64,000 nucleotides of DNA from assembly GCA_963614595.1 (NCBI GenBank), contig CAVECL010000004.1, forward strand, positions 2,268 through 66,267, written 5' to 3'. Under the pieces are notes generated by a model that saw nothing but the letters and a program-made list of their open reading frames with translations, did no database searches and had not been told where the DNA came from. Shown here in pieces: positions 17,151 to 58,653 of the stretch (positions are counted from its first letter, which is position 1; the number at the start of each line of letters is the position of its first letter). The stretch comes from Parasutterella excrementihominis. GTDB taxonomy: Bacteria; Bacillota_I; Bacilli_A; RFN20; CAG-826. A program made the translations under genes and the position numbers.

Positions 17151-17175
17151 CAAATGGCCAGAATTGGAGATAAAT

Positions 17176-35088: not shown

Positions 35089-35160
35089 AGGAATGCCCTT
35101 TCTAAAAGAGATATAAATGCTTGGCAAAATGATAATCTAGGGAAAAGGGTTTTCCCATAA

Positions 35161-35241: not shown

Positions 35242-37131
35242 ATGAAGCCTGGACTCAAAAAAGAAGCTACGTCCCTCGCGGTTTTTCTTTTGTCATTCCT
35301 CGCTATTTTCATTACTTGCTTCGCCCTTGTGAAAAGCGACGCGAACATGAATGGCAAGCAGGGGCTGCCAGACCTCGCGGATTGCAGCCTCGATTTCAAT
35401 GGATGCGAATTCGGAGAGACTTACGTCAAGCAACACATGAAGGGCGAATACGAGTTTTTCTATAACAAGTGGATCGTAGAAGAAAATTACACGGGGGAGC
35501 CGGATTGCCGCGTGAACGTGCCCCATCATTACAAAAACACGGTTCTGAATGGCGAAAGATTAAGCAATGAGGGCTATTCCTCCTACAGGATGTATATAAA
35601 AGGGCTCCCTGTCGGGACGAAAATCTGGTTCATCAACAACAACTTCGTCGGGGGTTTCTACGCCTATATCAACTCAGAGCTTGTCGTGAAATATGGGACG
35701 AGGGCGAAAACGGGAACCTGCCTTAGCAACGGGGGAGACGACATGACCTTGGAATACATCGTCAAAGACAGCAATCCTTTGACGGTTGTTTTCGAGGTAT
35801 CCTCGAGCTATCAAGGCGGGCTCACTTCTCCGGCTAGATTAGCCATCAACACTCTTGGAAGGAACCCGACCTCTCAATATCTCACGAATAACATCGGCTT
35901 CGTGATGATGGGCCTCATCCTTGGCTTGCTCGCCTTCTCTTTCGTGATCAATTTAGGGGCCGCAAAGCGGGATTTCTCCTTCTCGCTTGTCATGGGGGTC
36001 ATCACATTGATGAGCTTTTTCTCCATCGACGTCTATTGGAGGGTGCTCTCCATCTTCAGAACGAACACGTATAACTCCATCATCTTCCTTGATTTGCTGA
36101 TCGCGACGGTTTTGCCTTTTGCTTTGTACTATCACCTTGCGAAGAATCAAAAGATAAAGCATAACTGGGCCTATCCGATTGCCTTTGGGGCTATATCCAC
36201 TTTATCGGTGATTTTCTATTTCGTGCTTATGGGAACCTTCTACCAAGTGATTCCTTTGATTTTTTCCTTGCTTAGCCTCGCTTTGCTTTTGATCCCTTTG
36301 ACGAAAGGGATGTTCGAAGGGGCGAGGATTAATCTCGCCTTCATCTTCATGGTGTTCTCCTTGCTTACTTACTACGCGATCACTTTTTTCGATCTAGAGA
36401 ACATCATGATTGCGGGGACGGAGCAAAGCATCTCTTACGTGATGCTTCCGATCATCGTGATCATCATCGTCCTTTATCGCTTATCGACCGCGACCAAGAC
36501 GAAGCGTTATATCAAAGCCTTGGAGAAAGAGCAGAAGGCTCTGCAGATGAAAGCGGAAGCCTTAACCGAACAAATCAAGCCCCATTATGTCTTCAATTGC
36601 CTCTCTTCCATCCAAGGCGCATATCAAGAAGACAGCAAGAAAGGCGAGAGGATGCTGACAATGTTCTCCAAGCACTTAAGGGACAGCCTAGACGTCTCTT
36701 CTGACCTCGTCCCCTTTGAAAAGGAAGTGGAGCGCATCCTCCGTTACGCGGAACTGGAAAACATGAGGAAAGAGAAGAAAGTCGATTTGCTCCTTAACCT
36801 CGAAAGCACGGATTTTTCTCTCCCTCCCTTAAGCTTGGAACCCTTTATCGAGAACGCCTTCAAGCACGGCAAACTTGAGAAAATAAACGATGGGTATGTG
36901 TCTGTTTCAAGTTTTGAGGAAGAGAAAGACCACCTAATTCTAATCGAGGACAACGGGGTTGGATTCGACGTGAATCAGGTGAAGCCTAGCTCCGTGGGCA
37001 TAAAGAACGCGAAGGAAAGGCTGAAAATCCTCTGCGGAGCTGAGGTCCAAATAACCTCTAGGCCAAACAAGGGCACCACAGTGGAGATAAGAATCCCAAA
37101 GGAGAGTGAAGATGAACGCGATCGTGTTTGA
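35242..37131 (+). CDS. 7TMR-DISM sensor histidine kinase (LytS/YesM-type His_kinase + HATPase_c)
   Basis: N-terminal extracytoplasmic domain followed by 7 TM segments. Phosphoacceptor region IKPHYVFNCLSSIQ and a C-terminal ATPase (IEDNGVGF, GIKNAKERL). Confidence 0.85.
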   Translation: MKPGLKKEATSLAVFLLSFLAIFITCFALVKSDANMNGKQGLPDLADCSLDFNGCEFGETYVKQHMKGEYEFFYNKWIVEENYTGEPDCRVNVPHHYKNTVLNGERLSNEGYSSYRMYIKGLPVGTKIWFINNNFVGGFYAYINSELVVKYGTRAKTGTCLSNGGDDMTLEYIVKDSNPLTVVFEVSSSYQGGLTSPARLAINTLGRNPTSQYLTNNIGFVMMGLILGLLAFSFVINLGAAKRDFSFSLVMGVITLMSFFSIDVYWRVLSIFRTNTYNSIIFLDLLIATVLPFALYYHLAKNQKIKHNWAYPIAFGAISTLSVIFYFVLMGTFYQVIPLIFSLLSLALLLIPLTKGMFEGARINLAFIFMVFSLLTYYAITFFDLENIMIAGTEQSISYVMLPIIVIIIVLYRLSTATKTKRYIKALEKEQKALQMKAEALTEQIKPHYVFNCLSSIQGAYQEDSKKGERMLTMFSKHLRDSLDVSSDLVPFEKEVERILRYAELENMRKEKKVDLLLNLESTDFSLPPLSLEPFIENAFKHGKLEKINDGYVSVSSFEEEKDHLILIEDNGVGFDVNQVKPSSVGIKNAKERLKILCGAEVQITSRPNKGTTVEIRIPKESEDERDRV

Positions 37132-37882
37132 TGATGAAAAGGAATCCTTGCTTGTGTTTTCCTCGCACGCAATCGACGTGCCGAACCTGAGCCTGAACGT
37201 CTTCTCTTCCCGCTACGAAGAGGCGCTTGTTTATGCGCGTTCCCATAAAGTGGACGCGGCTTTCCTCGACATTGTGATGCCTGGGATGGATGGGGTTAGC
37301 TTCGCGAAGTCCTTGATTAAGATCTCCCCGAACATCAAGATTGTTTTCATCACGGGCTACGCCCAAGATGAGGAGGCGATCCGAAAAGAGATCGGGCCTA
37401 ATTTCTTTGCTTTCTGTTACAAGCCATATGAGGAGGGAACCATCCACGAGATCTTCGCGAAGATGATGAGCGAAGATAAACCCCTCATCGTATTTAAGGC
37501 ATTCCCTAGGTTCGATATGTACGTGAATGGGATTCTCGTGGATTTCGAAAGATCCAAGGCAAAAGAGCTTCTCGCTTTGCTTGTGGATCACCGCGGGGGA
37601 GAGGTGACGATCGAAGAGGCCGCCACCAAGCTTTGGATGGATAAGGATTATGAGCTGTCCGCAAGGCTTTACCGCGATGCGACGAGCCGGCTCAGAATGA
37701 AGTTTAGCGAATACGGGATTTCTTATTTGGCGGATTTCGGCAGGGGGAGGGCTTCTCTAAATTGCGAATACGCCTCCTGTGATTACTGGGACTATCTTGA
37801 TGGGGATTCTTCTTTGTTCAAAGGCGAATACATGAGGCCTTACGAATGGGCTGTGGAGCAAGAGGACTACATGAGCAGGTAA
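37112..37882 (+). CDS. response regulator with SARP/BTAD-like winged-helix output domain
   Basis: REC domain (DDE...DAAFLDIVMPGMDG...K). The C-terminus (FDMYVNGILVDFERSKAKELLALLVDHRGGEVTIEEAATKLW) is SARP-like. GGAGAG RBS lies 5 nt before the ATG at 37112, which overlaps the kinase 3' end. Confidence 0.75.
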   Translation: MNAIVFDDEKESLLVFSSHAIDVPNLSLNVFSSRYEEALVYARSHKVDAAFLDIVMPGMDGVSFAKSLIKISPNIKIVFITGYAQDEEAIRKEIGPNFFAFCYKPYEEGTIHEIFAKMMSEDKPLIVFKAFPRFDMYVNGILVDFERSKAKELLALLVDHRGGEVTIEEAATKLWMDKDYELSARLYRDATSRLRMKFSEYGISYLADFGRGRASLNCEYASCDYWDYLDGDSSLFKGEYMRPYEWAVEQEDYMSR

Positions 37883-38290
37883 CTGGCCTTTAAAAGAAGG
37901 CCATGATGACTATCGAAGAGGAATGAAGACACACTAAGGAGCCTGCGATGAAATTCATTGATGGGCTCTGCGGAAAGCTACGCCTCCGTCTTCGATGGAC
38001 GCTTTCTTCGGGGCGCATATGGCCAAGATGGCTGAGAGGACTTATAAAACCTTCTAACATCCAACCCTATAACCCCGGATTCAATTGGCGCTTGCCTCTC
38101 TGCTTTCAATGTTGGTTTCCAATCCTTTTAATTGGCAAATGGGGAGAAAAGGGAAAATAAATAGGAGGTTCGCATAGATTCACATTTTTATCTTCTTAGA
38201 GCCAACCGGCTAGGTAGATTCGGAGGCATTTTTACGAGTTAAAAATCAATAAACAATACAGGCGTCTTATAAATGGTCACTTTGGACTAA

Positions 38291-38318
38291 TTGCTTGAAT
38301 GGTCTCCCTCCCTATAAT
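38291..38318 (+). promoter_or_regulatory. promoter TTGCTT-16-TATAAT for the Hpt gene
   Basis: -35 at 38291-38296 and -10 at 38313-38318. GGAG RBS at 38337-38340 before the ATG at 38347. Confidence 0.5.
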
Positions 38319-38346
38319 GCCAATGCCTAGAAAACGTGGAGACGGC

Positions 38347-38700
38347 ATGATCGATTTGAAAAAGTTCTACAACAGCGTTGGCTCCGATGCGGATGATGTC
38401 ATTAGCCGTTTAGGAGGAAACGCCCGTCTTGCGAAGCGGTTCGTCAAGAGGTTCTTGGATGACAAATGCTTTTCGGATTTGCTCCTTTCCTTTGAGAAAG
38501 ACGATGCCCAGTCTGCTTTGAGGGCCGCCCATACCTTAAAAGGGGTTGCGGCGAACCTTGGAATGCAGACTTTGTTCGTCAAAACCTCTGAAGTCACCGA
38601 GCTTTTGGACGCAGGGAAACTTGAAGAATGCAAGAAAGCCTTGCCCGCTCTGCAAGAGGAATATTTCCGGGTTCGCTCTCTTGTCGAAGACCTTGTCTGA
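38347..38700 (+). CDS. stand-alone Hpt (histidine phosphotransfer) domain protein
   Basis: Canonical Hpt motif AAHTLKGVAANLGM in an ~117-aa helical protein. Confidence 0.7.
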   Translation: MIDLKKFYNSVGSDADDVISRLGGNARLAKRFVKRFLDDKCFSDLLLSFEKDDAQSALRAAHTLKGVAANLGMQTLFVKTSEVTELLDAGKLEECKKALPALQEEYFRVRSLVEDLV

Positions 38701-38849: not shown

Positions 38850-38907
38850 GTAGTTTTTTAAGCGAGTTAAAAAACTACTAGGAAAGCGCTTCCAAATTGC
38901 TTATAAT
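38850..38907 (+). promoter_or_regulatory. transporter promoter region: 12-bp-arm AT-rich palindrome, cre-like site and -10 TATAAT
   Basis: GTAGTTTTTTAA (38850-38861), GCGAG, TTAAAAAACTAC (38867-38878). Then GGAAAGCGCTTCCA (38881-38894; 13/14 match to the cre consensus TGNAANCGNTTNCA) and TATAAT (38902-38907). Confidence 0.55.
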
Positions 38908-38934: not shown

Positions 38935-40446
38935 ATGGAAGAAAAAACAAAAATGGAAACTAGGACCGACCGTTCTTACATTTCCAAAACTTCCGGGTTG
39001 CAAGGAAAAGACTATATCGGCTATGCCCTAGGCGATTTTGCCGGTTGCCTTTGCTTCTCTACGGTCACGACGATCCTGCAGAAGTACTACACGGACATCT
39101 TGGGCTTGACCCCGTTGTTCATCATGATCATGTTCATCGTCGCCCGTGTGTGGGACGCGATCAACGACCCGATCATGGGGCGCATTGTTGATATCAGGCG
39201 CCCGGGGAAAGATGGCCGTTATCGCCCTTGGATGAAGTGGGTGGCCATTCCCCTTTGCCTTGCCACCATCCTGATGTTCTTGCCCTCTAGCGAAGCGGCT
39301 CAGTGGATGGGCGGTGTTGGGACAATGGTTTATGCCACGATCACCTACATCATCTTCGGCATGGTCTACACCGTGCATCAGATTCCTTACGGTTCGCTCG
39401 CCAGCGTCGTTACAACTGACGCCAAGGAAAGAAACAAGTTATCCGTCTTCCGCTCCGCAGGCGCGGCGCTTGGATCGATGCCGATTCTCATCCTTACCAT
39501 GTTCTATTCCAAAAAGCTCTGGAATGAAGATGGCACAGCGAAGCTAGGCGAAAACGGAAAGCAGCTCACCCAGGTTCAATATCTTCCGATTATCATCGGC
39601 GTTTCCGTGCTTGCCGTTGTCGGCTGCGTCCTTCTTTTCATCGCTTATCGCAATAACAAAGAAAGGGTGGTCGCCAAACCCGCTGAGCACAAGAAAGGCG
39701 AGACTTGGAAAATCGCTAAGAACCTCCTTAGGAACCACAACTTCGTCGCTATCTGCCTTGTGGGGCTTTTGCTCCTCGCCGCGCAGATGTTCACGCAGTC
39801 TTTCTACACCTATCTTTTCAACGATCTTTTCTCCGCGAACTGGATGAACCTCGCTTCTCAGGCGTGCTCTTATGGGCCAATGGTCGTGCTTATGTTCTTT
39901 GCGGGCAAACTTGTTAGGAAGTTCGGGAAGAAAGAAATCTGCGCCGTCGGGGGCATTGTTGCGGCGGTGCCTAACGTCATTCTTATCTTCTTAAAAGACG
40001 CGATTGTCGCCACCCCGATTCTCTTCTTGCCTTTCTGCCTCATTAGCGGCATCGGCATTTCGATCATCACCCTTGAGATGTGGGCGTTAGCCACTGATGC
40101 GATTGATGATGTCGAGGTTAAAACGGGTCTCCGAAATGACGGGTCCTCTTATTCCACCTTCATGTTCTTCCGCAAGATGGGCCAGGTTCTCGCCGCCATC
40201 TGCGTGAACGTCGCCCTTATTGCCATGAACTACAAATCCGGCAGCGGAGAGGTCCAAACCGCGGAAACGCTCAACACCATGTATTATATGGCCACCGCCA
40301 TCCCGGCCGGACTATTCGCCCTCCTTGGTCTCACGCTTATCTTCCTTTATGGCCTTAGCAAAAAGAAAACCGATGAGCTGCAGGACAGAAAAGAAGAGCT
40401 TCTTGCGAAGCAGGTTGAGAACAACGAAGTCACGATCGGCGGATAA
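38935..40446 (+). CDS. GPH-family glycoside:cation symporter (YihO/MelB-like)
   Basis: 12-TM protein with the GPH signature RVWDAINDPIMGRIVD. Confidence 0.85.
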   Translation: MEEKTKMETRTDRSYISKTSGLQGKDYIGYALGDFAGCLCFSTVTTILQKYYTDILGLTPLFIMIMFIVARVWDAINDPIMGRIVDIRRPGKDGRYRPWMKWVAIPLCLATILMFLPSSEAAQWMGGVGTMVYATITYIIFGMVYTVHQIPYGSLASVVTTDAKERNKLSVFRSAGAALGSMPILILTMFYSKKLWNEDGTAKLGENGKQLTQVQYLPIIIGVSVLAVVGCVLLFIAYRNNKERVVAKPAEHKKGETWKIAKNLLRNHNFVAICLVGLLLLAAQMFTQSFYTYLFNDLFSANWMNLASQACSYGPMVVLMFFAGKLVRKFGKKEICAVGGIVAAVPNVILIFLKDAIVATPILFLPFCLISGIGISIITLEMWALATDAIDDVEVKTGLRNDGSSYSTFMFFRKMGQVLAAICVNVALIAMNYKSGSGEVQTAETLNTMYYMATAIPAGLFALLGLTLIFLYGLSKKKTDELQDRKEELLAKQVENNEVTIGG

Positions 40447-40449
40447 AAC

Positions 40450-41418
40450 CTATTCCCCGAAAATCTTATTAAAGGCGCCTAGCGCGCCTTTAATTTCGTT
40501 GATTTTCTGATAGTCCTCATAGACGCAGATCTTGGTTAAATCGAAGTCCGGCTTCAAAGAAATGATTTGCTTTTTCAACAGGGCGATTATATCTTCGGAA
40601 GTGAGCAAAGCGCCGGAAAGAATGATTTTTTGCAGGGATAATAAGGAATCCGCGTTGCAAAGAGCGAAGGAAAGAACGGTTAGAATCCCATCGAGCTTCG
40701 CTTTGTTTTTTTGAATCAAAGCAAGGCCTTCTTTCTCTTCGACTTCCCTCCCCAGGATGGAAGAATAGGAAATCGTGTCTTCTACGGTCTTATCTCGATA
40801 GAACGTGTGGCCAAGCTCGGAGGTGGCTCCAAGAGGCTTGCCGTTGGTGTAAATCGAAGAACCGAGACCAGGGCCGTATTTCACAAGGAGGAAGTTCTTG
40901 TCCTCGTGATGGGATAAAGAATAGATGGAGGCAAGGCAATCTACGTTGTTGAAGACGAAGTAGGGAACGCCGCTTCCTTGAACCTCATGGAACAATCCTG
41001 GATAACGCGTCTTAAAAGACTCTAGGCTCGCCTCGCCGCGAATGGTTATGCCGATGCCCAGCATCCTTCTTTTGGGTTTGGAGAGAATGTCGCCTAAAGA
41101 AGTTGCAGCATCGTCGGAACTGAAAATCGGTTCCCCGGAGAAATCCACGAGATTGAGGTAGGAATGATGCTTTCTCACGTCTATCGACAGGAAAGAGCCA
41201 TAATTGGCGTTAAGGGTGACGCGCAGTTCTCTTCTGCCGACTTTTTGGCTGGTTTTGCTGCTGGTTTCCAAAACCAGGCCATCGTTGATCAAAGGCTTAA
41301 GGGCTAGAGTTAAAGCGGCGTTTGTCAAGGCGAGCTTCGACGCGAGCAAAGTCCTCGTGGAGCTTTTTTCCACGAGCAGGATGCGAATGATTGTTTTCTG
41401 CGTTTTCGTCAAAGCCAT
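40450..41418 (-). CDS. ROK/NagC-like transcriptional regulator
   Basis: N-terminal wHTH (TQKTIIRILLVEKSSTRTLLASKLALTNAALTLALKPL) followed by a sugar-kinase-like fold with ELGH. The usual Cys-rich zinc motif is not evident. The ATG at 41418 is preferred. Confidence 0.6.
   Translation of the reverse strand: MALTKTQKTIIRILLVEKSSTRTLLASKLALTNAALTLALKPLINDGLVLETSSKTSQKVGRRELRVTLNANYGSFLSIDVRKHHSYLNLVDFSGEPIFSSDDAATSLGDILSKPKRRMLGIGITIRGEASLESFKTRYPGLFHEVQGSGVPYFVFNNVDCLASIYSLSHHEDKNFLLVKYGPGLGSSIYTNGKPLGATSELGHTFYRDKTVEDTISYSSILGREVEEKEGLALIQKNKAKLDGILTVLSFALCNADSLLSLQKIILSGALLTSEDIIALLKKQIISLKPDFDLTKICVYEDYQKINEIKGALGAFNKIFGE
40469..40500 (+). terminator. intrinsic terminator for the symporter gene, embedded in the 3' end of the convergent ROK gene
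   Basis: TTAAAGGCGC (40469-40478) / GCGCCTTTAA (40484-40493) with a 5-nt loop, then TTTCGTT. Confidence 0.6.
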
Positions 41419-41422
41419 AATT

Positions 41423-42139
41423 TTATAGGAATAGTGTAACCCCTGAAAGAAGCAAGAGGACACAGGTAATCTTCATGAAAACGTTTTTTGATAGCTTGGG
41501 GACGACGAAGGAGCCGATGACCAAAGAAAGGATGGTGGCTCCCGCCCCAAAGCCGAGAAGCATCCAAACATGAGCTGTAAATAAGCCGTCCATCATCTCA
41601 GTGGCGAAGAGCATCGAGTTCAAAATGATCCAAAGCAGCGATAAGGTAGATCTGAATTTGCTCTTATCCTTAAGTTCGTGTAGGGCGTAGATAACAACAA
41701 AGGGGCCGCCTGAAACATATAGTTTATGCATGATTCCGCCCAGGAAAAGGAAGATGATCATTAGCCACTTCGGAAGATTCACTTTCTCGAAATCCACGAA
41801 GAAGAAAGCAACCGCAATCACGATTACAAGCGAGGCGTATACGTATAAAAGGATCTTCGTGTCCATCGGGATGAGCTCAATCGCGAACCCCGTCCCAAAC
41901 CCCGCTCCAACGGATAAAAGAATAATTAAAAAATGTTTCCAATCAATGTCCTTGAAATGGGCGGCTACGATATAAACGCAGACAACCATGGCAACGAGAT
42001 TCAAAACTGGTTTAGCGGTGTTTGCCCCCTCCAATTTGAGAGAAAGAGGCATCGCCAAAACCGTTCCGGCGAAGCCGGTGATGGTTTGAATGATGTTGCT
42101 GATGAAGATTATCAGGATGAAAAGAATGTCTTGGACCAC
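41423..42139 (-). CDS. TauE/SafE (TSUP) family anion exporter
   Basis: About 7-8 TM segments, 238 aa, N-terminal ITGFAGTVLAMP motif. The GTG start overlaps the upstream stop (TAGTG). Confidence 0.75.
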   Translation of the reverse strand: MVQDILFILIIFISNIIQTITGFAGTVLAMPLSLKLEGANTAKPVLNLVAMVVCVYIVAAHFKDIDWKHFLIILLSVGAGFGTGFAIELIPMDTKILLYVYASLVIVIAVAFFFVDFEKVNLPKWLMIIFLFLGGIMHKLYVSGGPFVVIYALHELKDKSKFRSTLSLLWIILNSMLFATEMMDGLFTAHVWMLLGFGAGATILSLVIGSFVVPKLSKNVFMKITCVLLLLSGVTLFL

Positions 42140-42753
42140 TAGAAATCAACTCTTATGTTTTCTCCGACTATGCCGACGTAAGCCCCGTTTTTTGCTTGAA
42201 CGGCGTCTTTGTGGGCGTAAAGCCATTTATTGACCTTCCAAAGTTTTTTGTCTTTGGGGATCTCCGCTAAGTCCATATTCGTTCCGTCTCCCAAGATGAT
42301 GAGGCAGCGAAATCCATCCTTGCTTAGTTTGCATGGAGAGAAATGAAAGACGTAGGGATATAAACAAACGGCCTGCCCTTTCTTCAGCAAGAAGGCCTCG
42401 ACGTCTTTGGAATCAAGCACGCCATCGCAAACATCATCTTGATTCGCCAAAAGCAAAACAAGATCGTCCCCGGCGACATCGACTTCTGGACAGGCGTGGT
42501 ATTCCATGCAATTAAGCAGGGAATTGAAGCCGTTGCAGTAGCCAACTTCAATTTCGCCAAATCCGTATATTTCCTCTTTGATCTCTGAAATTCCCCGCAA
42601 AACCTTCATGTTTTCATCACTGCGTACGTAAATATTGCCTTCTTGCGGCATCTTCGCGCGCCCATGAAGATAAGAAACCATCTCGCTGGTGTCTAGATTC
42701 AAGACTTTGCCAAACTTATGGAAAAGGGGATCAGTAACGCTTCGTATTTTCAT
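42139..42753 (-). CDS. DUF4867-like (cupin-type) protein
   Basis: About 204 aa. The N-terminal pattern IRSVTDPLFHKFGKVL...PQEGNIYV matches my recollection of DUF4867. GGGAG RBS lies before the ATG at 42753. Confidence 0.5.
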   Translation of the reverse strand: MKIRSVTDPLFHKFGKVLNLDTSEMVSYLHGRAKMPQEGNIYVRSDENMKVLRGISEIKEEIYGFGEIEVGYCNGFNSLLNCMEYHACPEVDVAGDDLVLLLANQDDVCDGVLDSKDVEAFLLKKGQAVCLYPYVFHFSPCKLSKDGFRCLIILGDGTNMDLAEIPKDKKLWKVNKWLYAHKDAVQAKNGAYVGIVGENIRVDF

Positions 42754-44062
42754 CAAGGATCTCCCAGTTCATAAGTCTGGCTAGATAAGTCATGGCTTTC
42801 TTGTATTGCACGTAGCCCATGATGACGTGATGGGCGACGCCGGTATAGGCAACCGTGTCGACGACCTCATTGATGGGGCGATTAAACACGACTTTGGCAT
42901 AGGTTCCTGAGAGGTCTTTGGTCATTGGAAAAGCTTCGCCTTCTTCATAGTAAATTCTTGTTCTCCCCCTGGCGGTGTCGATGCGGAGGATGGACATCTC
43001 GCCTTCTTTGAGGACGAAGTCCGCGGTGACTCCCTTCCCGCCGGCGAAATAAGTTTCCAAAGATCTGTTGCAACGCTTGTCCCAAAGATTGCACGGGGCT
43101 ACGCCATCATGCCAAAGGAGCGCGTAGTTCTCTTCGTAGTTGACTTGGGAAAGGTCGGCCATGAAGGGGGTGGGTTCGCCTGCTGCTTTGACGGCGACCA
43201 TGCTTAAGGCCGCCTCGATGTCGCCTTCGCAGGCAAGAAGAATCCCTCTTGATTGCAAGACGGACATCATCGCGCAGGGAGAGACCCCGTAGTTTTTCGC
43301 AAATTCTGGCCAGCAGCGGATGGCAACCACGTCGAGGCCCTTTTCCTTCATGAATTTTTCGGCGACCACGATGAGACGGGAAACCTGTTTGACTTGATAA
43401 TCATTGAGCTTCTTGCAGTCGAAAGTCGCGCGGAGATTCTTTTCTTCTTTCGCGCTTTCTTCCTCGTCTGCCTCTCCGCCGAAGAAATCGCTTAATTCAT
43501 AATGGCTGATGAGGATTCCCAGCTCTTTGTATAGATGAAGCTCATCCACCCCGACGTTATAGAAGCCTTGAGCGTGGAATCCGATGAGACCGACGCTCGA
43601 ATTCTCCAAAGCGGTTTTCATCTTGATGGCTTTGACCCAGTCATGATCGACGTCGTCTCCGACGTAGACGATGTAGTCGTCCACCCCGCCCTTATAGAGA
43701 TTTGAAGCGTTCAAGTTAACTCCGCAGACCGCGTTAAGTCGAATCTTCCCCCCATCGTATGGGAGCTCGTTATATCCCTGGAGGAGGAAAGGCTTCTTGA
43801 CGATATCGTGGAGGATCAATGCAAGCCCGCCTAAATGGAAGGTCGCGGAGACGACGACGAGGGCATCCACGTGTTTTTCGACGAAATAGTTGCCGGCTTC
43901 TTTAGCCTCGTTGGCTTCGATGACCATTGTGGGGTAGTAGACCCAGTCGATGGAATCATCTTCCATCACTTTCTTGCACCTTTCTTGATAGAGTTTGAAG
44001 GCGGTTTCGTAATCAAATGTTTTGCGGACTAGGCAAACTAGGCCGATGATGGGCTTTCTCAT
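42731..44062 (-). CDS. L-fucose/L-arabinose isomerase-like sugar isomerase
   Basis: About 443 aa. The N-terminal Rossmann-like block GLVCLVRKTFD...VDALVVVSATFHLGG is typical of the fucose-isomerase-like family. 1-nt gap to the upstream gene. Confidence 0.55.
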   Translation of the reverse strand: MRKPIIGLVCLVRKTFDYETAFKLYQERCKKVMEDDSIDWVYYPTMVIEANEAKEAGNYFVEKHVDALVVVSATFHLGGLALILHDIVKKPFLLQGYNELPYDGGKIRLNAVCGVNLNASNLYKGGVDDYIVYVGDDVDHDWVKAIKMKTALENSSVGLIGFHAQGFYNVGVDELHLYKELGILISHYELSDFFGGEADEEESAKEEKNLRATFDCKKLNDYQVKQVSRLIVVAEKFMKEKGLDVVAIRCWPEFAKNYGVSPCAMMSVLQSRGILLACEGDIEAALSMVAVKAAGEPTPFMADLSQVNYEENYALLWHDGVAPCNLWDKRCNRSLETYFAGGKGVTADFVLKEGEMSILRIDTARGRTRIYYEEGEAFPMTKDLSGTYAKVVFNRPINEVVDTVAYTGVAHHVIMGYVQYKKAMTYLARLMNWEILDENTKRY

Positions 44063-44063
44063 G

Positions 44064-44900
44064 TTATTTGACCTCATTGACGATTTTGTAGGAAGCGGAG
44101 AAGTCCTCCTTTGCAAGGCCTTCTTTCATCGCTTCTTCGTAGATAGAGACAATACGCGTTAAGGCAGGGCATTCTTTTCCGGCGTCATTCGCCATTTCTC
44201 TGGCGAAATGAACGTCTTTGTTCATGTTTTCCACCGAGAATGCGGTGGGGTAGGTGTTGGAAATAATGTTTTTGGCTTTGGTGTCCAAATAGAAGCACTG
44301 GGCTCCGCCATAGCCTAACGCGGTGATGACTTCTTCCTGATTGAGGCCAAGGGCTTTTGCCAGGCCAAGGATTTCATTGACCCCGTTTTGGATCTCTCCG
44401 ACTAAGCCGTTGTGGAGGATCTTCATCTGAAGTCCTGCGCCGTGGCCGCCCATGTAGATGATGTTCTTGCCCATGCAAGAAAGAACGGGTTTTATGTTTT
44501 CGTAGATTTCTTTTTTGCCGCCCACGTAGATGCCTAGTTCGCCTTTAACGGCGGCAGGCTGAGACTTCACGACGGGGCAATCCAGGATTTCGACGCCCGT
44601 TCCTTCCAATTCCTTTGCGACCTTTTGGTTCGTTGATGGGGAGATCGTGGACATGTCAATCCAAATCTGACCTTTGCGGAAGTGGGGTTTCAATTCGGAA
44701 AAGAGCGAGAGCATATGCTCGTTTTTTGGAACCATGGAGATAATGACGTCCGCGAAGTCTGCGCATTCTTTATAGGATGAGGCAAAGGGGAATGGGGTGT
44801 CTTTTTTTATGACATCATAGCCGAGTAAGGGATATTCTTTGGCGACGTTATTGGCCATAGGCATCCCCATGATGCCAAGGCCGATAAAAGCGATTCTCAT
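44064..44900 (-). CDS. NAD(P)-dependent 3-hydroxyisobutyrate dehydrogenase-family reductase (YihU-like)
   Basis: MRIAFIGLGIMGMPMA dinucleotide-binding motif and HIBADH-type length and C-terminal domain. Confidence 0.85.
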   Translation of the reverse strand: MRIAFIGLGIMGMPMANNVAKEYPLLGYDVIKKDTPFPFASSYKECADFADVIISMVPKNEHMLSLFSELKPHFRKGQIWIDMSTISPSTNQKVAKELEGTGVEILDCPVVKSQPAAVKGELGIYVGGKKEIYENIKPVLSCMGKNIIYMGGHGAGLQMKILHNGLVGEIQNGVNEILGLAKALGLNQEEVITALGYGGAQCFYLDTKAKNIISNTYPTAFSVENMNKDVHFAREMANDAGKECPALTRIVSIYEEAMKEGLAKEDFSASYKIVNEVK

Positions 44901-44901
44901 C

Positions 44902-45582
44902 TTAATTTCCTTTCGTGTGGTCCCAGGCATCCTGGAAAACGCCTAAGCCATAAGTGGTAAAGGGGTGGTTGAAGCTGTCTTCGTAGACGGCTAGACCAGC
45001 GGTGACGATATCGGCGCCTAGCTCAGCGGCATCGGCGATCTGCTTGCCGTTTCTTACCGCGGCCACGATGATCTCCGTTTCGTATCCTTTTTCTTTATAG
45101 ATGTTCACAAGCTGGGAGATGTATGGGTAAGTGTCTTCTCCGTTGTTTTCTTTCCATCCGACGAAAGGAGAAACGAATTTGGCGTTGATTCGCCCGGCTT
45201 GGATGGCTTGAGAGGGAGAGAAGACCAAGGTGACGTTTGTGCGGATGCCAATTTTCTCGAGCTGATAGGCGGCTTTGACTCCTTCGGTGGTGCAGGGGAT
45301 TTTGATCGCGAAGTTCTCGGAAATCGCAGAGACCCTCCTTGCCTCTTCCATCATGTCCTCGGCTTTGTTCAAGTGGGGGTTGATCTCAACTGAGACCGGG
45401 AAGACATCGATGCCTTCTAAATGGTTCTCCTTAATCCAATTGGCAATGTCGGTAATCGCGGTTAAAAAAGGTTTGCCCGAAGCCATGATGTGCTTGGGAT
45501 TCGTGGTGACCCCGTCGATTTTGTAGTTCTTATAAGCAAAGTCGATTTCATTTAATTTGGCTGAATCAAGAAAATATTTCAT
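44902..45582 (-). CDS. FSA/TalC-type transaldolase-family enzyme
   Basis: MKYFLDSAKLNEI...GVTTNPKHI N-terminus, Schiff-base Lys context FAIKIPCT, and VSPFVGW. About 226 aa. AGGAGG RBS and ATGA overlap with the upstream stop. Confidence 0.85.
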   Translation of the reverse strand: MKYFLDSAKLNEIDFAYKNYKIDGVTTNPKHIMASGKPFLTAITDIANWIKENHLEGIDVFPVSVEINPHLNKAEDMMEEARRVSAISENFAIKIPCTTEGVKAAYQLEKIGIRTNVTLVFSPSQAIQAGRINAKFVSPFVGWKENNGEDTYPYISQLVNIYKEKGYETEIIVAAVRNGKQIADAAELGADIVTAGLAVYEDSFNHPFTTYGLGVFQDAWDHTKGN

Positions 45583-47564
45583 TGTAAGTTTCCTCCTTTT
45601 TCTTGGCTTAGATTTTTGAATAACTCCGCAAAAGTCGAGCCTTTCTTGTAAAAAGCAATAGGCAGGCCTATTGGCGAATCGATTTCTCCTTCCCCTGAAG
45701 GAACCTCTATGTTCGTGAAGAACTGCACCCATTCTCCTTTCGGAAGATAGTAACGATGCCTTGTTTCAGCGGGTCTTAGCACAGGGGAAACTAGAACGTC
45801 TGGGCCGAACATATATTCCCTCTTGTTCACATAGGCTTCTTGCTCATCGAAATAGAAGAAGAGGGGCGCGATCATCGGAGTGTTGTTTTTGTAATACTCT
45901 TCGTAAAGATGCTCGCGATAAGGTTTCAGTCTAACGAAGATGTCCGTGTTTTTGATGAATTCAGGATAGGTGTTGGGATTATCGTATTGGACATTGTTCT
46001 TGGGCTGATTGCCTTCGTGGGTGCGGTAGATCGGCGAGAAGATGTTCATCTCCGCCCAACGGTTGAATAGCTCCGCGTCTCTTTTCATCGGGTACAAGGC
46101 CGTGATGGTCGTGTAGCCTCCGATGTCGCTATGAATGACTCCCGCCCCAGAACAGGCTAAAGAGATGCAGGCTGGGATAACGCTTGCTAAGCCATATTCG
46201 TCTGAGTAATCGACGTGCTGGTCGCCATTCCACATGGAATTCGTGAATTGGAAGGTATGGCCATAAGCCGCTCTAGAGAAGTAGAAGATCTCGTCTTCCT
46301 TCCCTTCTTCCTTGACTGCGTCAAATGAGCACTTCGCCCACATGGTCGGCCAGCGGTTATGGAGTTTCTCGCTCTCTCCGCCATAGCAAACCGAATCGGT
46401 TGGCAAATATTCTCCGAAGTCTGCCATCCAACCTGAGAGGCCGTATTCGATCATGTTCTTCTTGATGATGTCGACGTACCATGCGCGGGCGGTTGGATTG
46501 GTGAGATCCACGATTCCGGCGTTAAAAGTGGTGGATTTGATGTGATAGACGGAGCCGTCTTTATGGCGGATCAGGAAGCCTTTCTTTTTAGCTTCTAGAT
46601 ACATCGGGGCTCCTTCCTTTAAGAAGGTGTTGATGTAGCCAAGAAAACGCACGCCCTCGGAATTCAGTTTCTTGATGATCTCTTTTAAGTTAGGATAAAG
46701 CTTCTCGTCGGCTTTCCAGTTCCAATAGACCTGATAGCCGAAGCTCGTCACGTGATTTCCGCACCAGTCCTGGCACCAAATAGCCGCGATTTTCAGTCCT
46801 TTTTGCTTGGCTTCCTCATATTTCTTGAGCAAAACCTCGCTGCCGCCCTGGATTGCCAGAATGACCCCGTCATTGACCCAGGAAGGCACTTTTGGCTGAA
46901 GCCCAACGAGTTTAGAGACCTCTTGAGATAGACCAAGCATGGAATCCGACGCGATCAGCGAAATCGATTGAGGGATCTGCCTGAATTTGATAAGCAGCTC
47001 ATCCTTTTTGAAGGAAAGAAAGCCATATGTGTCTTCGTGGCAATAAATCGCATAGCCTTTGGAGGACATGAACGACGGCGCGGAGCAATAAGTCTGATGG
47101 TCCTTATACGGGGATTCATGATCCGGCTGAGGGCCATGAAGCCTTTCCCTTAATTGCTTCTTGGCTATTTTCATCACCTGCTGATGCTCGCTGACCCAGA
47201 TGGGGACGTCTTTCCCTTTCAAATCAACGGTGGTGTATTGTTCGCCACAGCCATAGATATGCTCATCTTCAAACGTTTTGAAGCGGAGGGTGAAGCGGTT
47301 GTAGCCCGGATCGACATGGAAATGGAATTTTATCCAGGGGTCTTTGTCGACGATTATCTCTGCCTGAACTTTACCGTCGGTAAAGATGTAGCGCTTCCCG
47401 TCCTGGAAAGAGAAAACCAGCTTATGACGGTCGGTTATATGGTCTTTCGTCTTGAAAGAGCCCCTTGTCATCTTATAGCTTGCCTTGCCTTTGCCAATCA
47501 CCATATAGCAAGAGCCGTCGGTTAGCTGCCGCAAAAAATAGTCGTATAGTTCTTCTTTGCTCAC
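45579..47564 (-). CDS. yihQ: YihQ-family GH31 (sulfoquinovosidase-like) glycosidase
   Basis: GWMADFGEYLPTD, WNGDQHVDY, HSDIGGYTT and RTHEGN blocks match E. coli YihQ as I recall it. GTG start with an AAAGGAGGG RBS. Confidence 0.8.
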   Translation of the reverse strand: MSKEELYDYFLRQLTDGSCYMVIGKGKASYKMTRGSFKTKDHITDRHKLVFSFQDGKRYIFTDGKVQAEIIVDKDPWIKFHFHVDPGYNRFTLRFKTFEDEHIYGCGEQYTTVDLKGKDVPIWVSEHQQVMKIAKKQLRERLHGPQPDHESPYKDHQTYCSAPSFMSSKGYAIYCHEDTYGFLSFKKDELLIKFRQIPQSISLIASDSMLGLSQEVSKLVGLQPKVPSWVNDGVILAIQGGSEVLLKKYEEAKQKGLKIAAIWCQDWCGNHVTSFGYQVYWNWKADEKLYPNLKEIIKKLNSEGVRFLGYINTFLKEGAPMYLEAKKKGFLIRHKDGSVYHIKSTTFNAGIVDLTNPTARAWYVDIIKKNMIEYGLSGWMADFGEYLPTDSVCYGGESEKLHNRWPTMWAKCSFDAVKEEGKEDEIFYFSRAAYGHTFQFTNSMWNGDQHVDYSDEYGLASVIPACISLACSGAGVIHSDIGGYTTITALYPMKRDAELFNRWAEMNIFSPIYRTHEGNQPKNNVQYDNPNTYPEFIKNTDIFVRLKPYREHLYEEYYKNNTPMIAPLFFYFDEQEAYVNKREYMFGPDVLVSPVLRPAETRHRYYLPKGEWVQFFTNIEVPSGEGEIDSPIGLPIAFYKKGSTFAELFKNLSQEKGGNLQ

Positions 47565-47585: not shown

Positions 47586-47638
47586 CTTAATTAATTAAGT
47601 GACTTAAAAATTATAAAGGCAAACTCTTCTCGTTTCAA
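47586..47638 (-). promoter_or_regulatory. promoter TTGAAA-17-TATAAT of the yihQ operon with an AT-rich palindromic operator
   Basis: On the minus strand, -35 is at 47633-47638 and -10 at 47610-47615. TTAATTAA-GTGAC-TTAAAAAT (47591-47611) overlaps the -10 and TSS. CTTAATTAATTAAG (47586-47599) is a perfect 14-bp palindrome. Confidence 0.6.
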
Positions 47639-47749: not shown

Positions 47750-48391
47750 TTATTCGATACCGAATAGGTATTTTCGATAAAGCTTTTCCGTCTTTTCTTT
47801 GCCTATGTTTTTGACGAAGACGTCGGTTGAGGCGCCGCCATGCTTAAGCAAGCCATTCACGTAAACGGCTTGGAGGGCTTTCTTCTCTTCCGGATTTATG
47901 CCTTTCGCTTCTTTGATGATCTTGCAGAACTCGTTTAGATAAGCCTCGATGGTTTCGCCGAACAAGACTTTATCTTTTTTGGATTTGTTCGCGGTGGAGA
48001 CGCTTAGGCGGATTGGGTCATACCATGCGGGCTTCGCCTGGTAGGCTGGAACGTCTTTCAGTTTTTCTTTGATCGCCTGAAGGGAAGGATAGTCGGTTTT
48101 CTCTTTTAAGGTGTCGTAGCACTCAATTATGACCGTCTCGTTCTTCATTACTTCGATCGCGTCGTAGCTGAATAATGGGACGTCTTTGGTGAAAACCGTA
48201 AGCATAATCGCGTCCGTCTTCATAAGGCCCAGCATTGCCTTGCCTTTGAGAATCGATAGACGCCCTATTCCTTTTACGTCATAACAGACAACGTTGAACT
48301 TCATCGGTCCGACTTTCATTTTGGCGAATTCGCCGATATCGAGTTTGCTTAGCTCGAAATATTTGCCAAAGATGTTTTCAATGGTTTCCAT
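47750..48391 (-). CDS. hypothetical cytoplasmic protein
   Basis: 213-aa ORF with coding-like composition. There is only a faint resemblance (LTVFTKDVPLFSYDAIEV...ECYDT) to ferredoxin-dependent bilin reductase folds. Confidence 0.45.
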   Translation of the reverse strand: METIENIFGKYFELSKLDIGEFAKMKVGPMKFNVVCYDVKGIGRLSILKGKAMLGLMKTDAIMLTVFTKDVPLFSYDAIEVMKNETVIIECYDTLKEKTDYPSLQAIKEKLKDVPAYQAKPAWYDPIRLSVSTANKSKKDKVLFGETIEAYLNEFCKIIKEAKGINPEEKKALQAVYVNGLLKHGGASTDVFVKNIGKEKTEKLYRKYLFGIE

Positions 48392-48650: not shown

Positions 48651-49172
48651 ATGGTTACCAAAGAAGAAGTGCGATTTTTGCACCTGTTATTTGCTTCCTG
48701 GATTGTTTTGATGGCTTTTGCCGTGGCGACGACCGTTCTTTCCATCGTAAATATTTGGCAAGCCAATTCGATGAACAACAACATCTTCGAATTGCTTTTC
48801 ATGGCGTTCCACATTATTTTGCTAGGCTTCCTGATCATGGTCACCTTAAACGCCTTCAAAAAAGGAAGTCATATCATCAGGTCCCTAACCTATGGAGCCT
48901 ATGAGGGGGCGAGCCTTTTCTACCGCGCTCTTTCTATCCTTATTTTAATAATAGGGATTGCCTTAACTGTATTCGGAATCCTTTTCTTGGCTCCCACGGG
49001 CATTCATGACTTTGGCTTCCCAATCACTTTGAAGTGGGCGATGGTAAATGCGGGGCTGACACTTGCAGTCCTGAGCCTTGCTTTCTTGCTGTTTCCGATT
49101 TTATTCGCGAAGAATCCTACTTTGACCAAGCAAAAAGAAAACGAACTTAATGAAGGGAAAAAACAAAGATGA
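48651..49172 (+). CDS. small 4-5 TM membrane protein, unknown function
   Basis: 173-aa hydrophobic ORF. Its stop overlaps the GH13 start (ATGA). Confidence 0.5.
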   Translation: MVTKEEVRFLHLLFASWIVLMAFAVATTVLSIVNIWQANSMNNNIFELLFMAFHIILLGFLIMVTLNAFKKGSHIIRSLTYGAYEGASLFYRALSILILIIGIALTVFGILFLAPTGIHDFGFPITLKWAMVNAGLTLAVLSLAFLLFPILFAKNPTLTKQKENELNEGKKQR

Positions 49173-50824
49173 AAAAGAAAGCTGCTTTACTAGGGATTAC
49201 CGCCTTATCCCTTGCCGCATTGACGGGATGCAAATCAGGGGCAGACACCGCCGCTTCCGGCAAAAACGCTGAGACGACGTCTATTTACGACCCTCTTGAT
49301 GATGACGAGATCTATTTGCAGAAGGATCCCGCGGACGATTACGTCTACGCGGATTCCAGCAATGAGGACGGGTCGATGAATTATGAGATTTTCGTTCGCT
49401 CATTCTACGATTCTAACGGCGATGGAATCGGTGATCTCAATGGCGTGAAAGCCAAACTCCCTTACATCGCCGACATGGGATATAAAACGATCTGGCTGAT
49501 GCCGATTTTCCCTAGCATGAGTTACCACGGCTATGACGTGACCGACTACTATAACGTCAACGATGATTACGGCACCCTCGAGGACTTCGACTCTTTAATA
49601 AGCGAAGCGAAAAAGCATAACATCGACATCATGCTCGACATGGTTTTGAACCATTGTTCTTTGCAAAACCCTTATTTCGCCGAGGCCTTCGCGGATTATA
49701 AAGCAGGCAAAACCGGCGAGGGCTCGAAGGCTGACTGGTTCAATTTCGGGTCCACGGGCGATCATGTCTATCAAGGCATTCGTTACGAATCCAAATTCGA
49801 TGCGAATATGCCGGACTTTAACCTAGATTCGGAAGGCGTCCGCGCCGAGATGGAAAACATTGTCAAATTCTGGATCGATCGCGGGGTAAAAGGATTCCGT
49901 CTCGATGCGGTGCTTTATTATTACTACCAAGTAACGAATAAAAACGTCGAATTCCTAAATTGGCTTGCGGACACTTGCCATAAATACGATCCTGATTTCT
50001 ATATGGTAGGGGAATGCTGGGCCTCAAGCGCCTTGCTGAACACGTATTTTTCCTCCAAATGCGATTCGTTCTTCGATTTCTCTTTGCCAAGCGGGGGAGA
50101 CAACGTCTGCATAAGCTACCTCAAAGGATATGGGCGAATCGAAAACGTCAGCGAGAACATCGAGAAGAACGAGACCGCCCGGAAGGAGAAGAACCCGGCT
50201 GCTTACACTTCTTATTTTTTGAGCAACCATGACATGGACCGCATCTCCAAGAACTTCACGGACGAGAATGCTTATAAATCAGCCTGTTCTTTCTATGCCT
50301 TGCTTCCCGGAGATGTCTACACCTATTACGGCGAGGAAATCGCCTTAAAAGGCACCCGAGGCACGAATCCGGATGACCAAAACGACGTAAAGCGCCGCTT
50401 GCCCATGATTTGGAGCAAAAACGATAAGACCGGCGAATGCGCCTTTCCGGATAAAAGCCGTCCAGATCTAGACACTACCGAGCAAGTCGAAGAGGGCGTG
50501 GAAGACCAGCGAAGCAAACCTTTTTCTCTTACAAACCATTACAAGATGATGATCCACATAAGGAACAAGTATTCTTGGATCAAACGCGCGACCTACAAAG
50601 ACCTTTCATCCGAGCTTAATACCAGCGAGTACTCGGTGATGGCTTATTCCTTGTCTTGCGGGGATGAGAAAATAATCGTCGTCCATAATTTTTCCAGCCA
50701 TAACGTGGAGGTCGCTTCTCCGGGAAGCGAAATCGTGGACCAAATCAACACGATGCATCGCATCCCGGAGCTGAGCGGAGGTAAGCTTCGCCTTGCCGCC
50801 CATAGCAGCGTAATTCTTAAGTAG
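49169..50824 (+). CDS. GH13 alpha-amylase-family lipoprotein
   Basis: Lipobox AALTGC. GH13 regions I-IV are present: DMVLNH, GFRLDAVLY, GECW, FLSNHD. Confidence 0.9.
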   Translation: MKKKAALLGITALSLAALTGCKSGADTAASGKNAETTSIYDPLDDDEIYLQKDPADDYVYADSSNEDGSMNYEIFVRSFYDSNGDGIGDLNGVKAKLPYIADMGYKTIWLMPIFPSMSYHGYDVTDYYNVNDDYGTLEDFDSLISEAKKHNIDIMLDMVLNHCSLQNPYFAEAFADYKAGKTGEGSKADWFNFGSTGDHVYQGIRYESKFDANMPDFNLDSEGVRAEMENIVKFWIDRGVKGFRLDAVLYYYYQVTNKNVEFLNWLADTCHKYDPDFYMVGECWASSALLNTYFSSKCDSFFDFSLPSGGDNVCISYLKGYGRIENVSENIEKNETARKEKNPAAYTSYFLSNHDMDRISKNFTDENAYKSACSFYALLPGDVYTYYGEEIALKGTRGTNPDDQNDVKRRLPMIWSKNDKTGECAFPDKSRPDLDTTEQVEEGVEDQRSKPFSLTNHYKMMIHIRNKYSWIKRATYKDLSSELNTSEYSVMAYSLSCGDEKIIVVHNFSSHNVEVASPGSEIVDQINTMHRIPELSGGKLRLAAHSSVILK

Positions 50825-50888
50825 CCATCTAATAAATTCGGATTTAGAACCATCTGAATGAGTTTTTTTCGGCGTTTTGAAACAACTG

Positions 50889-50909
50889 TTAATTAACTTC
50901 CTTAAAAAA
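50889..50909. promoter_or_regulatory. 21-bp AT-rich palindrome TTAATTAA-CTTCC-TTAAAAAA
   Basis: Lies in the intergenic region upstream of the SBP operon. Same architecture as the sites at 35161, 38854 and 47591. Confidence 0.5.
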
Positions 50910-51014
50910 CAAGAAAGGGGTTTCAAAAAACTCTTTACAATCAAGTCCGAGTTTCACAAAATAGTGCCATGGATTTATAGAGGAAGGCGCAAGCGCTTTA
51001 TTCTTCACGAAAAA

Positions 51015-51028
51015 TGTAAGCGCTTTTC
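51015..51028 (+). promoter_or_regulatory. cre-like site TGTAAGCGCTTTTC
   Basis: 12/14 match to TGNAANCGNTTNCA, 26 nt upstream of the ATG. A second AAGCGCTTT core lies at 50991-50999. Confidence 0.5.
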
Positions 51029-51053
51029 TCTAGATTATTGAAAGGAGAAAAAA

Positions 51054-52637: not shown

Positions 52638-52660
52638 TTGAATCTGAAGCGATAAACATA

Positions 52661-52699
52661 GGGTGGGGTTTAATTCACTTTTGCCCCACCCTTTTGGTC
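52661..52699 (+). terminator. intrinsic terminator/attenuator between SBP and permease genes
   Basis: GGGTGGGG (52661-52668) / CCCCACCC (52684-52691) with a 15-nt loop, then TTTTGGTCTTTT. Confidence 0.65.
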
Positions 52700-52728
52700 T
52701 TTTATAAAGTGATGACGAAAGGCGAACT

Positions 52729-54264: not shown

Positions 54265-54266
54265 TT

Positions 54267-55184: not shown

Positions 55185-55196
55185 GAGGAACTTACT

Positions 55197-56339: not shown

Positions 56340-56346
56340 AACCTAT

Positions 56347-56368
56347 GGGGCGCGGAAACGCGCCCCTT
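56347..56368 (+). terminator. GC-rich hairpin with GAAA tetraloop
   Basis: GGGGCGCG (56347-56354), GAAA, CGCGCCCC (56359-56366), then TT. The T-tail is short. Confidence 0.55.
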
Positions 56369-56425
56369 AACTCTTAAGATCTTGGCTTGCTCATCGTGAG
56401 AAGCCAAATTAGAAAGGATAACTCT

Positions 56426-58639: not shown

Positions 58640-58653
58640 TTAGGAATAAACAT

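Follow-up and report, generated by a model that had tools for sequence, protein, structure and literature searches.

The 64-kb window analysed here (a single stretch of 64,000 nucleotides from contig CAVECL010000004.1, assembly GCA_963614595.1) contains, at positions 38935-47564, eight intact open reading frames (ORFs) which, judging by their sequences, very probably constitute a sulfofructose-transaldolase (sulfo-TAL, or SFT) operon of an uncultured, plant-glycan-degrading gut Bacilli bacterium. Seven of the genes are located on the minus strand (40450-47564). The first encodes a YihQ-family, SftG-like GH31 glycosidase of an atypical kind (45579-47564), referred to below as Q-type, and the second a sulfofructose transaldolase (44902-45582). 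These are followed by genes for an NAD(P)-dependent reductase of the beta-hydroxyacid dehydrogenase family (44064-44900; putative sulfolactaldehyde reductase, SftR role), an aldose-ketose isomerase of the AraA/FucI fold (42731-44062; putative sulfoquinovose isomerase, SftI role), a DUF4867 cupin protein of the SftX/SqvB type (42139-42753) and a TauE/SafE-family anion exporter (41423-42139; putative SftE role, export of 2,3-dihydroxypropanesulfonate, DHPS). The last gene of the operon encodes a local transcription regulator, in which an N-terminal winged helix is combined with a truncated ROK-like domain (40450-41418). The eighth gene, on the plus strand (38935-40446), codes for a GPH-family (MFS_2) cation symporter, the putative importer of sulfoquinovose (SQ) or SQ-glycerol (SftA/YihO role).

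The genes are joined in the manner usual for compact operons, which is not surprising by itself. In the raw minus strand, the stop codon of the GH31 gene overlaps the transaldolase start within a common ATGA (45582-45579). Single bases, at 44901 and 44063, separate the transaldolase stop (TAA, 44904-44902) from the reductase ATG at 44900 and the reductase stop (TAA, 44066-44064) from the isomerase ATG at 44062. The DUF4867 gene begins (ATG at 42753) within the isomerase gene (stop at 42731), an overlap of 23 nt, the sequence TAGTG (42141-42137) comprises both the DUF4867 stop and the TauE start, and a gap of 4 nt lies between the TauE stop (41423) and the regulator ATG (41418). The symporter gene, convergent with the operon, ends at 40446, 3 nt from the regulator stop at 40450. 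The GH31 gene starts with GTG, with AAGGAGGG just 5' of the start codon, and Shine-Dalgarno-like sequences are found 5' of most starts in the cluster. An earlier, sequence-only description of this DNA (hereafter, the original prediction) had given the same layout, including the convergent symporter and four of the junctions (ATGA, the two single-base gaps and TAGTG), and all of it is reproduced from the ORF list and the raw minus-strand sequence; the 23-nt overlap and the 4-nt gap are additional to that description. No signal peptide was found in any enzyme of the cluster, GH31 included, and the GC content of the cluster is unremarkable compared with its flanks.

A scan of species-representative genomes revealed 34 close loci, with an isomerase identity of 77-97%. 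Because the same eight genes recur in the same order in 30+ related loci (wherever the contig is long enough), the cluster is considered a real conserved unit; it is carried by about 30 species-level related metagenome-assembled genomes (MAGs). The TauE gene keeps its position in the related loci, while the regulator is the least conserved member of the cluster (48-87% identity). Named homologues are labelled 'Bacilli bacterium' and remoter ones 'Acholeplasmataceae', and the sample-set names of the relatives, in the present authors' own reading, suggest ruminant gut metagenomes. The host appears to be a fermenter of plant or algal glycans, because the rest of the window encodes galactanases, an alpha-amylase and ABC sugar transporters, as well as a locus of the beta-1,3-glucan type. 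MAG records with an isomerase 88-97% identical to that of the window are titled Alistipes, Bacteroides uniformis, Slackia, Faecalibacterium, Lachnospiraceae, Prevotella, etc.; the titles of these records (L001-L034) are mutually contradictory, and the submitted taxonomy of the MAG series looks unreliable.

The transaldolase and its partner proteins

No other single finding argues as strongly for a pathway that handles a sulfonated ketose as the sequence match of the transaldolase. The protein belongs to the Pfam family TAL_FSA and is 65% identical to the sulfofructose transaldolase of Priestia megaterium (BmSF-TAL, PDB ID: 8bc3; E 1.8e-90), whereas the best ordinary transaldolase in the PDB search reached only E 7e-43; the corresponding bit scores (305.6 and 150.0) lie ~155 bits apart. 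The signature of these enzymes consists of the catalytic residues D6/E61/K89, the sugar-orienting residues N111/S133 and a sulfonate-orienting 'WAR' motif (PMC11659671). In the alignment to BmSF-TAL, the signature maps one-to-one to D6/E66/K94, N116/S138 and W143/A175/R177 of the window protein, i.e., the Schiff-base Lys, the Asp/Glu triad and the W-A-R pattern expected of a sulfofructose transaldolase are all present. Within the W-A-R pattern, Trp replaces the phosphate-binding Arg after SPFVG, and Arg177 is kept. All signature residues are invariant in 37 related loci.

The isomerase aligns over its full length with the NCBIfam SftI model NF048012 (E 2.9e-52), but its score of 178 bits is far from the 700 bits required for an equivalog. 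As a sequence search of the PDB returned no match for this protein, its fold was assigned by an AlphaFold prediction (pLDDT 82, pTM 0.89) and a fold search, in which the model resembled L-arabinose and L-fucose isomerases (TM ~0.8, E 1e-22). The predicted AraA/FucI fold fits a 'fucose-isomerase-like' SftI, and the position of the gene and its synteny in the related loci fit the SftI role as well.

The reductase contains the Pfam domains NAD_binding_2 and NAD_binding_11 and scores below all NCBIfam equivalog cutoffs (e.g., 127.7 bits vs 348 for the YihU model NF012005). It is 30% identical to E. coli YihU (EcYihU) and retains the catalytic K160. In YihU, the sulfonate pocket is built from Asn174-Ser178 and the backbone of residue 123 (PMC8006165); the alignment places H163 at the position of N174 and V167 at that of S178, so neither the equivalog score nor the Asn174/Ser178 pocket of a YihU-type reductase was found in the window protein. 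Both H163 and V167 are invariant in 37 loci, including loci that are 64-68% identical, and the reductase gene sits between the transaldolase and isomerase genes in every related locus. Gene position and pathway logic suggest that the protein acts on sulfolactaldehyde as its reductase, from which DHPS would follow as the product.

The DUF4867 protein is recognized by Pfam (DUF4867, E 1.7e-63) and matches its counterpart from B. megaterium (PDB ID: 9gyy, E 1.7e-41); its 2His-2Glu metal site (E84, H86, E90 and H137) is kept in 36/36 loci. The putative exporter matches Pfam TauE over its full length (E 2.4e-16). The symporter, a Pfam MFS_2 member, scores 276 bits against the TIGR00792 gph model (cutoff 231) and is 30% identical to EcYihO and 28% identical to YihP.

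A GH31 glycosidase without the signature arginine

The GH31 protein consists of three GH31 domains by Pfam and scores 667.8 bits against the NCBIfam YihQ model PRK10426 (cutoff 553). Its best PDB matches are the four solved sulfoquinovosidases (SQases; E 1e-146 to 1e-148), and its identity to E. coli YihQ (EcYihQ, for which the MG1655 sequence served as the reference in residue mapping) is 41%. According to PMC12780224, GH31 SQases are defined by a Q/E-RWY motif (Q288, R301, W304 and Y508 in EcYihQ), and PMC12780224 and PMC8006165 describe the sulfonate pocket of YihQ as Arg301-Trp304-Tyr508(H2O). With the GH31_13 SQases (EcYihQ, AtSQase, ErSftG and PDB ID: 8r56) the window enzyme has in common the three-domain architecture, the catalytic Asp pair D382 and D448 (EcYihQ D405 and D472; contexts WMADFGE and GDQ) and the residues Q239 (Q262), Q265 (Q288), W281 (W304), Y484 (Y508) and H516 (H537). 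In contrast to these R-type enzymes, it lacks the sulfonate-binding arginine, with Q278 at the position of R301; Y277 and H271 correspond to K300 and R294, respectively, and the charge is swapped at EcYihQ E366, where R-type enzymes have Asp/Glu and the window GH31 has Lys343. The difference is also evident in an ungapped alignment: all four solved SQases contain FGKR..W.W (e.g., FGKRVMWNW in YihQ and FGKRLQWDW in E. rectale SftG, PDB ID: 6pnr), whereas the window GH31 contains FGYQVYWNW.

The glutamine occupies the R301 position in each of the 120 best homologues, the most distant of which are 46% identical (121/121 with the window protein). When this Q-type clade was compared with R-type representatives from an exhaustive search, four clade-invariant residues were found to be absent from R-type SQases, namely H127, K136, K316 (located in the loop that follows the 'INTFLK' strand) and H450 (two residues after the acid/base Asp), and a 3-residue insertion was observed after GGYTT. 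In a rough neighbour-joining tree, the 'H-K-Q-H' sequences form a large branch of their own beside the R-type SQases. Ten Q-type genomic contexts were inspected, including the window. The window, L036, L040 and L041 represent four sulfo-TAL clusters that share one gene order, two are sulfo-transketolase (sulfo-TK) clusters (L038 and L049), one (L043) contains a 67%-identical isomerase and a TauE-hydrolase fusion, and three are bare MFS_2-GH31 pairs; Q-type GH31 was thus counted inside sulfo-TAL and sulfo-TK clusters in 7/10 contexts. An MFS_2 gene accompanies the Q-type GH31 gene in nearly all contexts examined.

Loss of the arginine does not imply loss of SQ specificity, because AmSqgH, a GH31 enzyme from Alteromonas without the whole RWY motif, was experimentally demonstrated to be a true SQase (PMC12780224). 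AmSqgH is only about 28% identical to YihQ and feeds a sulfo-SDO (dioxygenase) pathway of marine gammaproteobacteria (PMC12780224), whereas the window GH31, at 41% identity, lacks no residue of the motif other than the Arg. Given this precedent and the tie of the Q-type contexts to SQ clusters, the window GH31 is most likely an SQase with a remodelled sulfonate pocket. A broader proposal, which falls just short of an even chance, is that the Q-type enzymes form a large uncharacterized SQase clade of at least 120 clusters (90% identity), mostly from uncultured Bacilli and their relatives, in which the Arg has been replaced, the charge comes from elsewhere and the sulfonate would be recognized in a different manner. 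Speculatively, K316, K343, H450, H127 and K136 might be the charges that replace the Arg. The clade could possibly also prefer a different SQ glycoside, e.g., lyso- or acylated sulfolipid headgroups processed with the help of neighbouring esterases. No paper on the Q variant, or on how uncultured Bacilli orders metabolize SQ, was found in a literature search, although its coverage was incomplete and novelty is not proven; a Bacillus sqv/sft cluster, sought on plasmids in order to tell whether its SftG is R- or Q-type, gave no match.

The same observations bear on an alternative in which the transaldolase chemistry is retained, with the downstream enzymes still processing sulfofructose, but the Q-type GH31 has a different specificity and the entry substrate is not ordinary SQ-glycerol (it could be, e.g., a sulfolipid headgroup in lyso or acylated form, some other SQ glycoside or a different 6-substituted alpha-glucoside). 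The exchange of Arg301 for Gln in the window GH31 and its 120 closest homologues would be consistent with such a substrate, together with the presence of H127, K136, K316 and H450, the recurrence of carboxylesterases or alpha/beta-hydrolases near Q-type clusters and the pairing of Q-type GH31 with a Gfo/Idh/MocA gene in some sulfoglycolysis clusters. This alternative is nevertheless unlikely, since the catalytic Asp pair is kept along with W281, Y484, Q265, Q239 and H516, AmSqgH is a true SQase despite lacking the motif, and the Q-type clade has ties to two distinct SQ pathways.

Two Q-type sulfoglycolysis clusters additionally contain a Gfo/Idh/MocA oxidoreductase and an AP_endonuc_2 (sugar isomerase/epimerase-like) protein (L036, 5120-7206; L049, 3672-4754 and 7975-8856). 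The NAD-dependent sulfoquinovosidases of family GH188 have the Gfo/Idh/MocA fold, and the presence of such a protein together with Q-type GH31 hints at two glycosidases of different substrates within one cluster.

Regulation and neighbouring genes

A sigma-70-type promoter would drive the seven-gene operon. The candidate site, TTGAAA-17-TATAAT on the minus strand (47610-47638), agrees with the consensus at 11/12 positions and is the best site in an 11-kb scan; its -10 box is kept in related loci. Directly downstream of the -10 box lies the palindrome TTAAGTCACTTAA (47595-47607), a putative operator, which is present in 27/27 related upstream regions (26 with the strict pattern, and L031 with a TATGAT -10 box), while the flanks have diverged. 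A second putative operator, TTTTTTAAGCGAGTTAAAAAA (38854-38874), is located upstream of the symporter gene and has the same half-sites and 10-bp perfect arms; operators of this type precede the symporter in 26/26 related loci. It is followed, in the symporter promoter region, by the palindrome AGGAAAGCGCTTCC (38880-38893), kept in 17/26 related loci, which is presumably a CcpA-type cre site given its resemblance to the consensus and which suggests catabolite repression.

The regulator is shorter than typical ROK members (322 vs about 400 aa). Its Pfam ROK score of 19.1 bits is under the cutoff of 22.9, and its matches to HTH_24/MarR are weak; in the PDB, it matches the ROK repressor Lmo0178 from Listeria (E 4.7e-9, residues 9-206) and XylR (E 2.4e-3). 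This winged-helix/ROK-like protein would be the cluster's own repressor, with the TTAAG-N3-CTTAA palindromes at the operon and symporter promoters as its probable binding sites. Phylogenetic footprinting thus points to a repressor-controlled regulon, likely under catabolite control. An Rfam scan of the window gave no match, i.e., neither a riboswitch nor an rRNA was found.

Two ORFs upstream of the operon have no family match and are shared with none but the closest relatives: a soluble-looking one of 213 aa (47750-48391, minus strand; kept in L001 and L004) and one of 173 aa with a hydrophobic N-terminus (48651-49172, plus strand; kept in L001 and L003-L005). On the other side of the cluster, the region between the symporter gene and an esterase gene encodes, on the plus strand, a LytS/YesM-like histidine kinase (35242-37131), a receiver-only response regulator (37106-37882; 258 aa, no recognized output domain) and a stand-alone Hpt protein (38299-38700). 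This two-component system (35242-38700) is probably not a member of the cluster and was rejected as such, as apart from the window it occurs in just a few close relatives (L005 and L045-L047).

The esterase gene, coding for a cytoplasmic type-B carboxylesterase (33745-35127, minus strand), overlaps a second GH31 gene (31547-33787, minus strand) whose product is alpha-glucosidase- or alpha-xylosidase-like, and the pair adjoins the SQ cluster in 11 related loci. Distant Q-type clusters have an esterase gene overlapping the GH31 start, a Hydrolase_4 gene after TauE, or a TauE protein fused to an alpha/beta-hydrolase (L036, 8796-10004 and 16151-17068; L043, 12517-14283). These neighbouring esterases and hydrolases may act as deacylases for lyso-sulfolipid or acyl-SQ.

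The beta-1,3-glucan-type locus (2415-27049) contains a GH81 (997 aa), three GH16, a GH30, a LacI regulator, components of an ABC transporter and large proteins without a Pfam match (17164-18576; 18600-21737, 1045 aa). An 843-aa protein (27172-29703, minus strand), with C-terminal matches to the membrane domains DUF898, DUF6693 and DUF4234, is encoded downstream of a MatE transporter gene. Beyond the operon, the region 49169-61828 encodes an alpha-amylase, an ABC sugar transporter (solute-binding protein, two permeases and a MalK-like ATPase) and two GH53 galactanases, as well as a 609-aa protein without a Pfam match (58654-60483).

Pathway, end product and significance

Homology and synteny suggest the following pathway. 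The GPH symporter would import SQ or sulfoquinovosyl-glycerol, and the cytoplasmic GH31 would release SQ, which the AraA/FucI-fold isomerase would convert to 6-deoxy-6-sulfofructose. The transaldolase would then transfer the C1-C3 dihydroxyacetone unit to glyceraldehyde-3-phosphate, giving fructose-6-phosphate and 3-sulfolactaldehyde. The latter would be reduced to DHPS by the NAD(P)H-dependent reductase and exported in this form by the TauE protein, while the DUF4867 cupin may assist in some unspecified way, as in characterized systems.

The published sulfo-SFT set comprises SftA, SftG, SftI, SftT, SftR or SftD, SftX and SftE, and occurs in ~189 clusters in Bacilli and Clostridia (Frommeyer 2020, PMC7491151). 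The window cluster corresponds to the SftA/G/I/T/R/X/E version of this set, encoding a reductase but not a dehydrogenase, which supports the original prediction of a sulfo-TAL/SFT cluster; the residue-level agreement of the transaldolase points the same way. The family assignments made at that time were all recovered by Pfam, NCBIfam or PDB searches, some with qualifications. The 'YihQ-like' GH31 holds at the family level but has Gln in place of the sulfonate-binding Arg, the 'YihU-like' reductase is only 30% identical to YihU and lacks its sulfonate residues, and the 'ROK regulator' is a weak assignment, based on the sub-threshold Pfam match and the PDB match to Lmo0178. The naming of SlaB as the reductase was incorrect: SlaB is the sulfolactaldehyde dehydrogenase, and the reductase is SftR/YihU.

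No aldehyde (sulfolactaldehyde) dehydrogenase and no glycyl-radical DHPS-cleaving enzyme was found in the 64-kb window, and therefore excretion of DHPS, as originally predicted, would fit, as in E. rectale and C. symbiosum; the prediction follows the published logic (SftR, no SftD), in which strict anaerobes with SftR only, such as these two species, excrete DHPS (PMC7491151). The cluster of E. rectale (Agathobacter rectalis; EUBREC_2585-2596) and its equivalent in C. symbiosum have the same functional set and likewise no dehydrogenase (PMC7491151; Sharma 2025, PMC11968277). Both belong to anaerobic gut Firmicutes that are expected, or were observed, to produce DHPS, and their isomerase and reductase are likened to those of the window by role; they differ in that E. 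rectale SftG has the canonical Arg and in that both organisms are Clostridia, whereas the window comes from an uncultured member of Bacilli with a winged-helix/ROK-like regulator. The clusters of Priestia megaterium DSM 1804 (sqv) and P. aryabhattai SOS1 (sft) share with the window a transaldolase with the same active-site and sulfonate residues, the DUF4867 protein represented by 9gyy, an MFS symporter and a TauE exporter. Aerobic Bacillus clusters, however, form sulfolactate by means of a sulfolactaldehyde dehydrogenase (SftD/SlaB) and have a GntR regulator (PMC7491151), in contrast to the reductase and ROK-like regulator of the window; moreover, the window isomerase is far under the SftI equivalog cutoff. 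In the E. coli yih cluster (YihO/P, YihQ, YihS, YihV, YihT and YihU), which encodes the sulfo-EMP (Embden-Meyerhof-Parnas) pathway and also ends in DHPS, the GPH transporter, GH31 and beta-hydroxyacid dehydrogenase-family reductase have the same roles (30%, 41% and 30% identity, respectively), but the core consists of a kinase and an aldolase instead of a transaldolase, YihS has an unrelated isomerase fold, and the window counterparts lack R301 of YihQ and N174/S178 of YihU.

Several observations weigh against the proposed pathway. The GH31 is without the Arg by which the sulfonate pocket is defined in each of the four solved SQases, the isomerase is far below its equivalog cutoff (178 vs 700 bits), and the reductase is remote from YihU, without Asn174/Ser178 and under every NCBIfam cutoff. 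No SQ mutarotase gene is present. Finally, E. gilvus excretes sulfolactate despite encoding SftR, so the product is not always readable from gene content (PMC7491151).

The last point leads to a variant of the sulfo-TAL pathway in which exported DHPS is not the end product, sulfolactaldehyde being oxidized elsewhere to sulfolactate or DHPS being processed by enzymes encoded outside the window. Apart from the case of E. gilvus (PMC7491151), it would be in line with the extended DHPS pathways (HpfG/HpfD) that PMC11489063 describes for some Firmicutes, with a reductase substrate pocket unlike that of YihU and with a view of the genome limited to 64 kb. Such an outcome is improbable, as neither the cluster nor the rest of the window encodes an aldehyde dehydrogenase or a glycyl-radical enzyme, every related locus has the reductase gene translationally coupled between the transaldolase and isomerase genes, the pocket of its product being invariant, and a dedicated TauE exporter follows. 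Catabolism of a non-sulfonated sugar (e.g., a 6-deoxy-hexoside or an ordinary alpha-glucoside) by an FSA/TalC-type enzyme and a generic reductase, with TauE as an unrelated membrane protein, might be read from the missing sulfonate residues of GH31 and the reductase, the sub-cutoff scores of the reductase and isomerase and the ordinary glycan-utilization genes filling the surrounding window, but was rejected as highly improbable on account of the W-A-R signature of the transaldolase (with its ~155-bit preference for BmSF-TAL over ordinary transaldolases) and the genomic context, in which DUF4867 and TauE co-occur as in proven SQ clusters and the same GH31 clade is also found in sulfo-transketolase clusters.

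The sulfofructose-transaldolase route with DHPS as its product thus remains the preferred interpretation of the locus. The pathway as such has been described and known since 2020, and is here newly placed in an uncultured Bacilli lineage, which the locus adds to the likely producers of DHPS. The Q-type clade constitutes a ready target for enzymology, i.e., for the study of sulfonate recognition without Arg. Motif-based annotation may under-count SQ degraders, because the clade is without the arginine used as the SQase signature; if the proposed function of the clade is true, surveys of SQases based on the RWY motif would miss a substantial share of the SQ degraders in herbivore and human guts.

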